A stretch of DNA of 64,000 bases from Escherichia coli (lineage in GTDB: Bacteria > Pseudomonadota > Gammaproteobacteria > Enterobacterales > Enterobacteriaceae). Shown one piece after another: positions 20,359-50,421 of the stretch. The translations under genes were made by a program, and so were the position numbers. Positions within the stretch are counted from its first letter, which is position 1. Each line of letters starts with the position of its first letter. The stretch lies in assembly GCF_050920415.1 (NCBI RefSeq), contig NZ_CP169309.1; one strand, written 5' to 3'. Below the pieces are notes generated by a model. That model ran no database searches, was not told where the DNA came from, and worked only from the letters and a program-made list of their open reading frames with translations.

Positions 20359-20464
20359 ATATTCATCCCTGAAATGTATTAATCAAATAAACGATATTTT
20401 ACGCGCAATAAATGTTTGGCGCATTAGTTGTTTGAGCGGAAAATATCTGGAAAGCAATCACAGT

Positions 20465-20551
20465 AAATAAAAAAACCTGCTGGTGAGGCAGGTTCTTTTA
20501 TTTACTACTTTCAGGCCTAACACCACGGCCTGTGCAACATCGTGTTCCAAC
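20465..20551 (-). ncRNA. orzO: candidate OrzO-like antitoxin sRNA (type I TA)
   Basis: Minus-strand sigma70-like promoter (TTGCAA-N17-TATAAT, -10 at 20563..20558) and minus-strand intrinsic terminator (stem 20474..20494 followed by a U-run in the RNA); the transcript 5' region is complementary (19 of 20 nt) to the zorO 5' UTR at 20699..20718; ends are predicted, not mapped. Confidence 0.45.
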
Positions 20552-20557
20552 GAACGA

Positions 20558-20608
20558 ATTATAACCATCGGTGGACCCCGTTGCAATTAAGATAATGAGA
20601 TTTATAAT
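20558..20608. promoter_or_regulatory. divergent overlapping sigma70 promoters sharing one palindromic -35 hexamer
   Basis: Plus strand: TTGCAA (20581-20586) N16 TATAAT (20603-20608), predicted TSS near 20615 giving a ~175-nt leader to the zorO ATG; minus strand: the same TTGCAA read in reverse, N17, TATAAT (20563..20558). Confidence 0.5.
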
Positions 20609-20789
20609 CCTGACTGTTGGGACGTTGCGCCGGATCGAACCCATTTCAAGTCCTGGCTACCGGACGGGTGGTGCCGCAGGTAGTGCCCTGATCCGGAGTG
20701 CAACATCGTGGTCCAACATACGTAAACCAGTATCGACAGGCAGTGTAAGGGTAAGATGCTGGTGTTGCGCTCCTTAATAAGGAGAGCGG

Positions 20790-20879
20790 ATGGACACGCT
20801 GACACAAAAGTTAACCGTGCTCATTGCCGTACTGGAGTTATTAGTGGCTCTGTTACGGCTGATTGATTTGTTGAAGTAA
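20790..20879 (+). CDS. zorO: type I toxin, 29-aa hydrophobic peptide (ZorO-like)
   Basis: ATG 20790 preceded by GGAGAG SD; translation MDTLTQKLTVLIAVLELLVALLRLIDLLK; stop TAA 20877-20879; missed by the ORF track because shorter than 60 aa; matches my recollection of ZorO from E. coli O157:H7. Confidence 0.7.
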   Translation: MDTLTQKLTVLIAVLELLVALLRLIDLLK

Positions 20880-21138
20880 CGGGCAAATTGAAACGCATCT
20901 AAGGGGGAATACCGTCTCCCTCTTTAATAAAGCTATACTCGTCATAATTCAAGTTGCATGTGCTGCGACTGCGTGTTATTCGGCCCATCCATGGACCTCA
21001 CCCCTTACGGGGCCGCTGCAAGTAGCGTTCAAATCCGCTCCATGCGGATTTGTCGTTCACCCCAGTCACTTACTTTAGTAAGCTCCTGGGGATTCACTCG
21101 CTTATCGCCTTCCTGCAACTTGAATTATTTAGAGTATA

Positions 21139-21456
21139 TTATTCTATTTCTTGGTTGAATATATTCTGTAGTTCACGATTAAAAATAGCGATTACAGTTT
21201 CAGGTGATTCACCTCGTAATTTTCGCTCATCAATAAATTCATCTCTTATATAAATCAACGCATCATTTATTAGCGGGTCGGCATCATCTCTATCACGTTG
21301 ATGAAATGTTGGACGTAGCCGGAATCGTTCCTGTCGATAGACGGAACCTGTAAATAATTCAGAGCATTTATGGATCTCAAGTCTGAAGGAAAACGGATCT
21401 TCAGGTACAGGGACTTCATAATCATAAGTAGCGACCAGCTCTTTTTGCACGATCAT
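21139..21456 (-). CDS. yehK: small uncharacterized protein, 105 aa
   Basis: ORF 21139..21456, 60 nt downstream of yehI on the same strand; size and position match K-12 yehK. Confidence 0.7.
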   Translation of the reverse strand: MIVQKELVATYDYEVPVPEDPFSFRLEIHKCSELFTGSVYRQERFRLRPTFHQRDRDDADPLINDALIYIRDEFIDERKLRGESPETVIAIFNRELQNIFNQEIE

Positions 21457-36771: not shown

Positions 36772-36814
36772 AAAGCTGAAATCATTCGCGTGAATGATTT
36801 CAGCTTTTTTATTG
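36772..36814 (+). terminator. yehE rho-independent terminator
   Basis: 16-bp stem aaagctgaaatcattc / gaatgatttcagcttt followed by ttttttatt. Confidence 0.7.
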
Positions 36815-45581: not shown

Positions 45582-46409
45582 ATGAAACCAATGCAGCTTA
45601 GCATCACCAGTCGAAAAAAATTCACCGCTTTATTATGCGCTCTTGGGCTAATTTCCATCGTTGCAATTTATCCGCGTCAGACGGTGAATTTTTTCTATTC
45701 GACAGCTATTCAGATTAAAGACTACATCCACTTCTACGGTTATCGCCCGGTTAAATCTTTCGCTATTCGCATTCCTGCCAGTTACACCATTCACGGAATA
45801 GATGTTTCGCGCTGGCAGGAGCGGATCGACTGGCAGCGGGTGGCTAAAATGCGCGATAACGGTATTCGTTTGCAATTTGCCTTTATCAAGGCGACGGAAG
45901 GCGAAAAGCTGGTGGACCCGTATTTTTCGCGTAACTGGCAACTAAGCCGCGAAAATGGCCTGTTGCGTGGGGCGTATCATTATTTTTCCCCGTCGGTATC
46001 CGCCTCAGTTCAGGCGCGATTATTTCTGCAAACGGTGGATTTCTCACAAGGCGATCTACCTGCCGTGCTGGACGTAGAAGAACGGGGAAAATTATCGGCA
46101 AAAGAATTACGCAAGCGGGTAAGTCAGTGGCTAAAAATGGTCGAAAAACGCACGGGAAAAAAGCCGATTATTTACTCAGGAGCCGTTTTTTATCACACCA
46201 ATCTGGCGGGCTATTTCAATGAATATCCGTGGTGGGTGGCTCACTATTATCAACGTCGTCCGGACAATGACGGCATGGCCTGGCGCTTCTGGCAACATTC
46301 CGACCGTGGCCAGGTGGATGGCATTAATGGCCTGGTGGATTTTAATGTGTTTAATGGCACGGTGGAGGAGCTGCAGGGATTCGTTGATGGGATTAAAGAA
46401 ACGCCTTAA
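45582..46409 (+). CDS. yegX: GH25 lysozyme-like muramidase with N-terminal membrane anchor
   Basis: 275 aa; N-terminal hydrophobic segment; position matches K-12 yegX. Confidence 0.75.
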   Translation: MKPMQLSITSRKKFTALLCALGLISIVAIYPRQTVNFFYSTAIQIKDYIHFYGYRPVKSFAIRIPASYTIHGIDVSRWQERIDWQRVAKMRDNGIRLQFAFIKATEGEKLVDPYFSRNWQLSRENGLLRGAYHYFSPSVSASVQARLFLQTVDFSQGDLPAVLDVEERGKLSAKELRKRVSQWLKMVEKRTGKKPIIYSGAVFYHTNLAGYFNEYPWWVAHYYQRRPDNDGMAWRFWQHSDRGQVDGINGLVDFNVFNGTVEELQGFVDGIKETP

Positions 46410-49147: not shown

Positions 49148-50421
49148 TTAACTTCCCCTTGTGTCAACGCAATATCGCGATCATCGACCTTGATAGCCGT
49201 AATTTCGTTGTCGGATTCGCGGAAAAAAATCATGAACAGCACGGCGATAATGGCAATCATCACCGCGCCGAAAGTCCACATCCCGGACCAGTTGAAAGTC
49301 AGTCCGTTTACCGGTTCCGGATAAGCGAACATCTTTTCCATCATCACACCGCCAAGACGATAGCCGAGCAAACTGCCGAATCCCTGGCAGCAGAGCGTGA
49401 TCAGCCCCTGCGCAGCGGTACGCATATGCACGGGGGCTTTTTTATCGACATAGATGTAAGCGGTAACGTAGTAAAAATCGTAACTTACTCCATGCAGCAA
49501 AATGCCGAGGAACAGTAACGCGTAGGTGAAATATTCATCCGCACTACCGTAAATAAAGAAGCCATAGCGGATCGCAGCGGTGACCAGACCAAGTAATAAT
49601 ACCTTTTTGATACCAAAGCGTTTGGTAAAAAACGGCAATGCCAGCATAAAGAAGATTTCAGAGAACTGGCCGAGCGTCATCCAGCCGGTGGCGTTTTTCA
49701 TGCCGACTTCTGTCAGATAACCGTTGGCAAAGATGTAATAGAACGCCAGTGGCATCGCAAACAGGAATGAACAGAAGAAAAAGACGAGGAAGTTTTTATC
49801 GCGTAGCAGGATCAGCGCATCCAGGCCGAGCATGACTTTAATGTCCATTTTGCCGGTGCTTTTTGGCGGCGTGTCGGGCAGGAAAAACGCAAACACACCG
49901 AGCAGAGCAGAACTTCCGGCGGTAATCAGCAGCGGGATGTTAGTCGGAGAGATATCGGCATAACCCAGCATTTGCGGCAAAAATCCACATGCCAGACCGG
50001 AGGCAATCCAGCCGATAGTGCCCATCACACGAATGCGTGGGAAATCACGCTCCACATCCGGCACGTTGGCAAAAGCGATACTGTTAGTCAGCGCAATGGT
50101 CGGCATATAGGTTAGCGAGTAGGCCAGCAGTAACGGGAAGAACCCGGCAAAAGTGGTCTGTTGCGCAGCGAAATACATCAGCGCCGCACCAGCGAACATC
50201 AATACCGCCAGCACTTTCTGCGCCGAGAAAAAGCGGTCAGTGATGGAGCCAACCAGAATTGGCGACAGGATCGCCGCAATGGCGGTACAGGCATACGACC
50301 AGCCAATTTCTCCGGCACTAAAACCGCTTTTACTTAACCACAACCACAATGGCACAAACCACGCGCCCCAGATAAACCATTCAACAAACATCATGAACGA
50401 CAGCTTTGCTGTTGTTTTCAT
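49144..50421 (-). CDS. yegT: MFS nucleoside:H+ symporter-family transporter
   Basis: 425 aa, multi-TM; first gene of yegTUV. Confidence 0.8.
   Translation of the reverse strand: MKTTAKLSFMMFVEWFIWGAWFVPLWLWLSKSGFSAGEIGWSYACTAIAAILSPILVGSITDRFFSAQKVLAVLMFAGAALMYFAAQQTTFAGFFPLLLAYSLTYMPTIALTNSIAFANVPDVERDFPRIRVMGTIGWIASGLACGFLPQMLGYADISPTNIPLLITAGSSALLGVFAFFLPDTPPKSTGKMDIKVMLGLDALILLRDKNFLVFFFCSFLFAMPLAFYYIFANGYLTEVGMKNATGWMTLGQFSEIFFMLALPFFTKRFGIKKVLLLGLVTAAIRYGFFIYGSADEYFTYALLFLGILLHGVSYDFYYVTAYIYVDKKAPVHMRTAAQGLITLCCQGFGSLLGYRLGGVMMEKMFAYPEPVNGLTFNWSGMWTFGAVMIAIIAVLFMIFFRESDNEITAIKVDDRDIALTQGEVK

Follow-up and report, generated by a model that had tools for sequence, protein, structure and literature searches.

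The repeat called ERIC, IRU or RU-1 is said to have been described by Sharples and Lloyd in 1990 and by Hulton et al. in 1991, and interrupted or deleted variants of it were reportedly treated by Sharp and Leach in 1996, by Cromie, Collins and Leach and by Sharp in 1997, and by Wilson and Sharp in 2006. Reviews present ERIC/IRU as a 127-bp MITE with terminal inverted repeats (TIRs), a target-site duplication and a terminal TA (PMC2229807, PMC3184786), and a separate survey also arrived at ERIC, as a family of stem-loops of which E. coli has about 19-21 copies (PMC2267715). Insertions in ERIC and palindrome-induced deletions of it are published, going by the citations in PMC3696847 (pmid 9218778, 9218779, 8971725), which also supplied the ERIC1R and ERIC2 primer sequences used here. 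For Yersinia, a model outlined in PMC2229807 after De Gregorio et al. 2005 holds that ribosome-dependent unfolding bares an RNase E site and makes the upstream mRNA more or less stable, depending on the orientation of the ERIC. Two RNA families are also relevant: AaHKsRNA22 (RF02902), defined from RNA-seq in PMC5909427, the text of which gives no details on sRNA 22, and RtT, the function of which is unknown (bioRxiv 10.1101/2024.07.17.603846).

We analysed a 64,000-nucleotide stretch of an Escherichia coli genome (contig NZ_CP169309.1), referred to as the window, which is 100% identical to E. coli MFDS1022581, NZ_CP169399.1. An earlier sequence-only reading had drawn attention to a 181-bp segment bounded by a perfect 13-bp inverted repeat between zorO and yehK, and had offered three interpretations: a MITE-like remnant, a structured RNA, or the scar of the insertion that delivered the toxin-antitoxin (TA) locus. 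The element is of a well-known kind, an ERIC/IRU MITE in a long, interrupted form, and is already known; ERIC and its roughly 70-bp internal insertions are likewise already described. The finding itself is ordinary, and the residual interest lies in the allele series at the yehK stop codon and in the kinship of the ERIC insert.

The element between zorO and yehK

The position between zorO and yehK was confirmed from the open reading frames and a match to OrzO. The features of the region are as follows, with the strand given where one applies:

20469-20544, minus strand: OrzO (RF02083), 98.9 bits
20790-20879, plus strand: zorO open reading frame
20934-21138, minus strand: complete ERIC/IRU element, 205 bp, a 127-bp ERIC plus a 78-nt internal insert
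20934-20935: left-end TA, one of the two target copies, from empty versus filled alleles
20934-20958: left ERIC terminal inverted repeat, perfect core 20944-20958
20975-21052, minus strand: nested 78-nt four-hairpin module, boundaries unambiguous against the 127-bp allele L002
21030-21052, 21015-21026, 21000-21013 and about 20982-20997, plus-strand coordinates: module hairpins H1, H2, H3 and H4, respectively
21057-21098: ERIC central hairpin core with the ERIC2 and ERIC1R primer sites, the apical hairpin in the predicted fold
21114-21138: right ERIC terminal inverted repeat, perfect core 21114-21128, abutting the yehK stop codon
21137-21138: right-end TA, the other target copy, from empty versus filled alleles, preT-yeiS included
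21139-21456, minus strand: yehK, stop codon 21139-21141, with yehI and yehL beyond

The element lies between the convergent genes zorO and yehK, and its right end directly adjoins the yehK stop codon. A terminator-like hairpin belonging to zorO itself is located at 20903-20919, before the ERIC. In the PGAP annotation of the records the repeat is unnamed.

Both 13-mers of the inverted repeat were found where the sequence-only reading had placed them, at 20946-20958 and 21114-21126. The perfect repeat is in fact 15 bp long (ataattcaagttgca at 20944-20958, with its reverse complement at 21114-21128) and sits within 25-nt arms, 20934-20958 and 21114-21138, with a complementarity of 88%. These arms make the natural unit 205 bp rather than 181 bp: the inverted repeat is real, and the limits first drawn from it fall 12 bp short on each side. 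Within the ERIC terminal inverted repeats, conservation is highest in the 13-bp repeat.

The segment is very probably the interior of one copy of ERIC (IRU), a non-autonomous MITE of the Enterobacteriaceae, and such a copy is also the best explanation of the whole unit. Exact matches to the two ERIC-PCR primer sites, 20 and 19 nt long, were identified at 21078-21097 on the plus strand (GTAAGCTCCTGGGGATTCAC) and at 21057-21075 on the minus strand (AAGTAAGTGACTGGGGTGA), each of them the sole such match in the window, where chance would give 0. The ERIC2 primer sequence reads in the minus-strand orientation of the element, which is the yehK sense strand.

A search with the 205-nt unit as query retrieved matches in 5425 of 5426 complete E. 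coli genomes, at 50,106 places in all (maximum 17 per genome); the further copies for which the sequence-only reading had suggested looking thus exist at a median of 10 places per genome. The typical E. coli match is a 127-bp copy of 92-95% identity that contains both ends of the query without its middle, and the 127-bp form was also found on 315 plasmid records from Salmonella, Escherichia, Klebsiella, Citrobacter and others. Within the 64-kb window there is no second ERIC copy. Canonical ERIC copies align end to end with 20934-20974 and 21053-21138, a check on which the identity could have failed and on which it stands. Without its insert, the window copy has a length of exactly 127 bp and can be aligned with the allele of that length in strain Ecol_743 (L002).

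Comparison of filled with empty alleles gave the arrangement TA, element, TA at both zorO-yehK and preT-yeiS. The coding content of the element is limited to spurious short ORFs, with no transposase gene, and the marks of a MITE are present: TIRs, a target-site duplication, presence/absence polymorphism and the lack of a transposase gene. Such an element would have been mobilised in trans by a transposase. The proposal of a MITE-like remnant holds for the MITE, as the TIRs, primer sites, TA duplication and empty sites demonstrate; it fails for the remnant, as the ERIC is complete.

The nested module and its relatives

What brings the window copy from 127 bp to 205 bp is a 78-nt module that folds by itself; it is inserted in an internal loop that the ERIC hairpin leaves unpaired, with 41 nt of ERIC on one side as the left arm and 86 nt on the other as the right part. 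In the predicted fold, the two ERIC arms pair as a long stem-loop, and the insert adds hairpins of its own, which branch off at a multibranch loop while the ERIC stem stays paired; the several short hairpins noted earlier in the interior are confirmed by this prediction. The 205-nt fold has a predicted energy of -81.9 kcal/mol on the plus strand (z = -9.0 against shuffles) and -96.5 kcal/mol on the minus strand (z = -9.8), compared with z = -5.4 and -6.0 for the 127-nt allele.

The insert is rare in E. coli, being present in 648 of 5426 genomes and at essentially three loci. It was found at zorO-yehK in 223 genomes; at preT-yeiS it appears, from two sampled matches (one of them L093), to cover most of the remaining genomes; and at yajO-dxs a version 12 nt shorter occurs in a few genomes (L007). 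The preT-yeiS locus exists in three states: empty in K-12 (497-498 bp), with the 127-bp ERIC (623 bp), and with ERIC plus module (701 bp). Between long and short alleles of the same locus the ERIC arms differ at 2 positions at preT-yeiS and at 6 at zorO-yehK, compared with 9-16 differences between loci, and the bases at the junctions are themselves locus-specific (GCGACTGCG / TCGTTCACC at zorO-yehK versus GCGTCTGCG / TCGCTCACC at preT-yeiS). Since the arms are locus-specific and are kept up to the junction, the module is a precise indel in resident, locus-specific ERICs at two loci at least. It occupies the same ERIC site at zorO-yehK and preT-yeiS, with no target duplication visible.

A second site within ERIC is also used. 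In E. coli SCPM-O-B-8794 (L014), one ERIC carries two modules in the same orientation, in two different internal loops. Paired model matches with the same spacing as in that strain were obtained at three further loci (L038, L039, L060), which suggests that the predicted two-module arrangement is also present in two other Escherichia lineages. The RU-3 element of Delihas was considered as the identity of the module and rejected: it is a 103-bp stem-loop and a different element.

The structure of the module was derived from an alignment of 46 copies (A1), read column by column as a row of four hairpins with conserved linkers between them (…GAAC…, GGCCCG-loop-GGGYG, …RWTAA). In this structure 90.9% of cells are paired, compared with 28-38% when the partners are slid; 12 pairs are altered on both sides; and the covariation score is 0.337, compared with 0.03-0.06 in the slid controls, a value reached by 0 of 500 shuffles. 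RNAalifold independently predicted the same four hairpins. H1 is invariant only because it was used as a search pattern, and the covariation evidence comes from H2-H4. At gathering thresholds, no Rfam family was placed on the element in the window region, nor on any of ten module-bearing loci, so that the covariance-model search proposed in the sequence-only reading returned no known family. Its suggestion of a structured RNA stands as far as the predicted long hairpin and the covarying four-hairpin module are concerned; no Rfam threshold is reached and no promoter-like site was found. A tRNA or tRNA-like reading, prompted by GTTCAAATCC, was rejected: ARAGORN called 0 genes in 20800-21300, and the motif is not a tRNA remnant.

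Relatives of the module were collected by a pattern scan of one genome per species for the terminal hairpin GTTCAAATCCGC-N5-GCGGATTTG, which yielded 85 stretches in three contexts. The first is within ERIC-like elements of Escherichia, Serratia, Citrobacter, Affinibrenneria and Sodalis; the second is just 3' of 5S rRNA genes in many Enterobacteriaceae; and the third comprises several copies per genome in Thioalkalivibrio, Rhodanobacter, Halothiobacillus, Rheinheimera and other Gammaproteobacteria. The Thioalkalivibrio and Rhodanobacter copies tend to lie within inverted repeats of their own. A flank-duplex (closing-stem) test gave a median z of about -2 and is suggestive in these two genera only; in ERIC hosts the module is placed asymmetrically, and the test is uninformative there. 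One K-12 copy lies between the rrnB T1 and T2 terminators (L094, 437-517), and a BLAST search located the rrnB-spacer version in 3982 genomes (median 2 places).

The alignment A1 was turned into a covariance model (R1), which gave the following matches:

K-12 rrnB spacer: 87.2 bits
preT-yeiS copy: 83.2 bits
20972-21055 of the window, minus strand: 78.4 bits, E = 7e-18
K-12 tyrT operon, sense strand, four full-length matches: 18-21.5 bits, E = 3e-5 to 3e-4, with filters off

Each tyrT match falls within one of four Rfam RtT repeats, which score 133-137 bits with the Rfam model and one of which is the annotated sRNA RttR. In the reverse direction, the rrnB version scores 17 bits with the RtT model (RF00391, gathering 45 bits), which gave no match in the window at E up to 10. 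The tRNA-operon setting of RtT is absent here as well: no tRNA lies within 20800-21300, and the module is flanked by ERIC sequence. AaHKsRNA22 (RF02902) matched the window at 20941-21062 on the minus strand with 23.2 bits (E = 0.016), below its gathering score of 39.8; it scored 33.4 bits on the second-site module of L014, and 48.5 bits, above gathering, on a Serratia copy that is also an R1 match (L066). R1 also detected tandem arrays in Serratia and inverted pairs in Halothiobacillus. In both stable-RNA settings, the sequence behind the module duplicates the 3' end of the gene upstream (tRNA-Tyr in RtT, an 18-bp 5S repeat at rrnB). A general linkage to stable-RNA genes was considered and rejected: a tRNA is near 1 of 57 other loci, and the linkage is limited to rrn and tyrT.

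Judged by these sequence and model comparisons, the insert is a member of a predicted structure family, one that overlaps with RF02902 and has RtT as a more distant relative; the insert reaches the threshold of neither. The wider kinship of the module (RtT, the rrnB spacer, RF02902 and distant Gammaproteobacteria) may be undescribed, none having been found in the available literature.

Most likely the module is a small nested, mobile or recombining, RNA-structured (selfish) element that is tolerated because it folds autonomously. A stronger version, which we consider possible and put forward only tentatively, is that the insert belongs to a widespread four-hairpin superfamily of the Gammaproteobacteria, apparently undescribed, which comprises RtT, the rrnB T1-T2 spacer, AaHKsRNA22 and the multi-copy elements of Thioalkalivibrio, Rhodanobacter, Halothiobacillus and others, and that the module moves on its own. 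A self-moving module would insert and excise precisely, without target duplication, in the unpaired loops of larger hairpins (the two ERIC sites), or alternatively at sites adjoining the 3' ends of stable-RNA genes; such mobility would be structure-directed and possibly single-strand or RNA-mediated.

The alternative with the best standing, though still a doubtful one, is that the indel arose by homologous recombination (gene conversion) between long and short ERICs or by replication slippage across the palindrome, the module itself not being mobile. ERIC copies do offer homology arms of 41 and 86 nt on either side, the module is rare and nearly confined to three loci in E. coli, palindrome-induced ERIC deletions are documented (pmid 8971725, as cited), and 55-bp remnants exist at this very locus. 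However, locus-specific ERIC bases reach the junction at both loci, which would require conversion tracts only a few nucleotides wider than the module, and ERIC-to-ERIC conversion leaves unexplained both the second ERIC site (L014) and the quite different host sequences in other taxa. We keep the nested, RNA-structured element as the preferred reading.

Strand, transcription and a possible effect on yehK

We tentatively take the module to work on the minus strand, the one that is sense for yehK; the orientation of known RNAs, the flanking genes, the fold and the upstream ORFs all point that way. The module is oriented as on the window minus strand in RttR, in AaHKsRNA22 and in the rrn-distal copies inspected. 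At all three of three E. coli ERIC loci the flanking genes are transcribed in the direction of the module, a sample (n = 3) that is not statistically meaningful, and the minus-strand fold is more stable than the plus-strand one. Upstream ORFs were co-oriented in 37 cases and opposed in 12, counted on crude stop-to-stop ORFs with non-independent copies and spurious ORFs in GC-rich genomes, a count on which we do not lean. G.U and A.C counts were 34 and 22, with one column dominating each.

By default, the element would be co-transcribed as the start of the yehK 3' untranslated region, where it would be expected to fold as a long branched hairpin. Terminating ribosomes would probably disturb the pairing of the 5' arm, since the element starts right past the yehK stop codon, and decay of the yehK mRNA may then be modulated through RNase E, as proposed for Yersinia ERICs. 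An effect of the element on the yehK mRNA is thus inferred by analogy with that model.

It is improbable that the whole unit or the 78-nt module is an independent structured sRNA gene, transcribed from its own promoter or processed, and acting in trans. The very strong folding z-scores and the covariation-supported module are what such a gene would show, its relatives include detected RNAs (RttR, a K-12 sRNA processed from the tyrT transcript, and AaHKsRNA22, from RNA-seq), and the orientation of the module relative to flanking transcription is constant at the three E. coli ERIC loci and in the inspected rrn-distal copies. Against this, a simple scan found no promoter-like (sigma-70-like) site in or beside the element; its host is a multi-copy transposable repeat, and palindromes fold on either strand whatever the function; the copy is present or absent among strains with the locus otherwise visibly unchanged; and the window copy is below every family threshold, the three co-oriented loci being too few to carry statistical meaning.

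A role mainly as bidirectional terminator or insulator between convergent zorO and yehK is quite unlikely. A long stable hairpin exactly between convergent genes would suit such a role, as would the GCUUUAUU that comes after it on the minus strand. However, the stem is AU-rich at its base, and a simple scan of both strands gave no intrinsic terminator (GC-rich stem plus U tract) in the element beyond a weak hairpin inside it, at 20952-20970; on the minus strand, the interval from yehK to zorO yielded no terminator call. The terminator-like hairpin of zorO lies upstream of the ERIC, and strains without the element retain both genes. Co-transcription with yehK is no more than a default expectation.

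Allele series and comparison with known systems

The yehL-yehI region was aligned from six further strains, and the zorO-yehK interval was found in several states. XH992 (L004) and TL20 (L006) contain zorO, an uninterrupted TA and no element; Ecol_743 (L002) contains zorO and the canonical 127-bp ERIC. The 205-bp form is present in the window and, at the same locus, in Escherichia sp. MOD1-EC7003 (L057), with flanks 95.5% and 91.9% identical. O157:H7 Wll001 (L003) and Z1323HEC0067 (L005) carry a 55-bp remnant in which both termini are left and the centre is gone. K-12 BW25113 (L001) has a deletion of about 475 bp, roughly from 20645 to 21119, which takes the zorO ORF and all of the ERIC save its last ~20 bp; the breakpoints have CAAyTT in common.

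At single-base level, the empty site reads AAAGC-TA-TTTTTC (L004) and the filled site AAAGC-TA-TACTCG...GAGTA-TA-TTATTC. In the empty alleles yehK ends in ...GAA AAA TAG after 106 codons, and the TA of this TAG is the ERIC target. In alleles with a present or past ERIC, a TAA stands one codon earlier, giving 105 codons, and the ERIC consequently starts on the base following the yehK stop codon. Because zorO-positive alleles with an empty TA exist beside those with TA, element, TA, the ERIC is a later arrival than zorO. In K-12 the spacer is not ancestral and plain but derived, by a deletion through the ERIC; K-12, with whose intergenic region the sequence-only reading had suggested a comparison, cannot serve as a plain spacer, since its deletion cuts zorO and most of the ERIC.

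The same alleles refute the idea that the unit is the scar or terminal repeat of a mobile insertion that brought zorO-orzO, to which we assign next to no probability. Its attraction was that the unit lies immediately downstream of zorO and that K-12 lacks both zorO and most of the element. Yet XH992 and TL20 are zorO-positive and ERIC-negative, Ecol_743 has zorO with a plain 127-bp ERIC, and the K-12 deletion cuts through the ERIC and leaves its last ~20 bp. No matching repeat is found at the far side of the TA locus, the 64 kb holding a single ERIC; the same element family occupies about 10 unrelated loci per genome, and the empty, 127-bp and 205-bp states recur at the unrelated preT-yeiS locus. 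Nor is the element an integral, co-inherited part of zorO-orzO: zorO occurs without it, with the 127-bp form and with remnants. A chance inverted repeat in spacer DNA can be dismissed. In 64 kb, one 13-bp inverted repeat spanning up to 200 bp would be only a mild surprise; here, however, the repeat is a perfect 15 bp within 25-nt arms, the window has 5 places with perfect inverted repeats of 13 bp or longer separated by no more than 300, compared with a mean of 0.33 and a maximum of 2 in 30 dinucleotide-preserving shuffles of it, and the whole unit is found ~50,000 times over E. coli genomes.

These results bear on three matters. First, the segment is a textbook ERIC repeat and is silent on how zorO-orzO was acquired, and the allele series corrects the assumption that K-12 represents the ancestral spacer. 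Second, an ERIC on the TA of the yehK stop codon is a natural test case for the ribosome/RNase E model, and a clean one because empty, 127-bp, 205-bp and 55-bp alleles all occur in nature. Third, the module joins RtT RNA, the widely used rrnB T1/T2 spacer and long ERICs in one covarying family that extends well beyond the enterics; if this kinship is new, it offers a handle on the nature of RtT-like RNAs.

Among the relatives of the module, AaHKsRNA22 (RF02902) presents the same hairpin series as the window minus strand and the same linkers (…GAAC…, GGCCCC-loop-GGGGnGAG…); the window copy differs in its first hairpin, which is CAAATCCGC/GCGGATTTG and not of the CAAAACG/CGTTTTG type, and in being nested in an ERIC. 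The core of RtT/RttR, the 178-bp repeats of tyrT, aligns with H2-H4 and the linkers, H1 having diverged. A larger closing stem encloses RtT and the module alike; RtT, for its part, belongs to a tRNA operon, and its last stretch repeats the 3' end of tRNA-Tyr. The rrnB T1-T2 spacer, the best-scoring copy, has the same H1 stem sequence as the window insert; it lies outside ERIC, is followed by the 18-bp repeat of the 5S 3' end, and differs in H2 and H4 in a compensating manner.

With the Yersinia ERICs the window copy has in common an element right after a stop codon, an expected co-transcription with the upstream gene and a predicted ribosome-sensitive hairpin; species and copy are different. 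Like the window copy, the interrupted ERIC variants reportedly have one particular internal site occupied by an insert of ~70-80 bp without loss of the RNA fold, and the deleted variants have their counterpart in the internally deleted short form at this same locus in O157:H7. With ERIC/IRU in general the window copy has in common the 127-bp imperfect palindrome, the ERIC1R and ERIC2 core, the TIRs and the TA duplication, as well as an intergenic site by a stop codon, many dispersed copies and a long RNA hairpin. There is no essential difference between the two: the window copy is the less common, 205-bp long form of ERIC/IRU.

The ERIC insertion site at the end of yehK and its deletion alleles

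Comparison of zorO-yehK alleles placed the insertion site of the ERIC element at the end of yehK. In empty-site alleles, the TA targeted by ERIC belongs to the TAG stop codon of yehK, and yehK has 106 codons (E. coli XH992, locus L004, ~930-940). Every compared allele with a present or past ERIC carries TAA one codon earlier, giving a yehK of 105 codons (window 21137-21141); the ERIC therefore starts directly after the yehK stop codon. A frameshifted yehK pseudogene is annotated in some strains with an ERIC or an ERIC remnant (Ecol_743, L002 1061-1377; Z1323HEC0067, L005 992-1308).

ERIC remnants of 55 bp, with both termini kept and the centre lost, were found at this same site in O157:H7 Wll001 (L003 1094-1148) and in Z1323HEC0067 (L005 937-991), consistent with the "palindrome-induced deletion" described for ERIC in the literature. 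Alignment of K-12 BW25113 (L001) with the window demonstrated that ~475 bp, corresponding to window ~20645-21119, are missing from K-12, removing the zorO ORF and most of the ERIC; CAAyTT is common to both breakpoints. The orzO-like region and the zorO-upstream sequence are retained (equivalent of window 20431-20643) without the zorO ORF, and K-12 therefore harbours an orphan antitoxin-like remnant.

Copy number of zor-orz

The window strain has a single zor-orz copy, adjoining yehL. In O157:H7 (L003) and TL20 (L006), another zor-orz-like copy, presumably zorP-orzP, is arranged in tandem with the aligned zorO, on its upstream side. The window also has a second OrzO-P match, which is weak (20390-20499, plus strand; 26.8 bits, below the gathering threshold). 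This match is on the opposite strand, where it overlaps the terminator of OrzO, and probably reflects the shared bidirectional terminator hairpin.

Other repeats and mobile DNA

The remaining perfect inverted repeats of at least 13 bp in the window are as follows, that at 36772 being a near-contiguous palindrome:
850-883 and 970-982, inverted repeat
36772-36807, inverted repeat
45615-45694, inverted repeat

At preT-yeiS, the second E. coli locus with empty, ERIC and ERIC-plus-module alleles, an IS1 transposase underlies the match in one strain, H121 (NZ_CP190018.1), indicating that this spacer is also a target of other mobile DNA.

Arrangements of the four-hairpin module and comparison with known repeats

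In E. coli SCPM-O-B-8794 (L014 1140-1385, minus strand), a single ERIC holds two modules in the same orientation, in two different internal loops. Matches to the covariance model of the module are likewise paired in L038, L039 and L060. Module copies form tandem arrays in Serratia and, in a Halothiobacillus MAG, inverted pairs with close spacing.

Module arrays and pairs (Serratia, Halothiobacillus MAG)
L066 (Serratia), 644-842
L066, 4627-4910
L061, 168-330
L078, L080 and L081

In the gammaproteobacterial MAG Cca_21, a group II intron domain V/VI (RF00029, 64.8 bits; L082 9548-9623, minus strand) lies ~1.2 kb from a module copy.

The second-site module of SCPM-O-B-8794 has a first hairpin of the AaHKsRNA22 type (CAAAACG...CGTTTTG). 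In the rrnB distal region of K-12 (L094 344-533), the segment carrying terminator T1 and the module is flanked on both sides by an 18-bp direct repeat, aactgccaggcatcaaat, consisting of the 3' end of 5S rRNA plus 6 nt. This repeated 5S end is akin to the copy of the tRNA-Tyr 3' end that terminates each RtT repeat.
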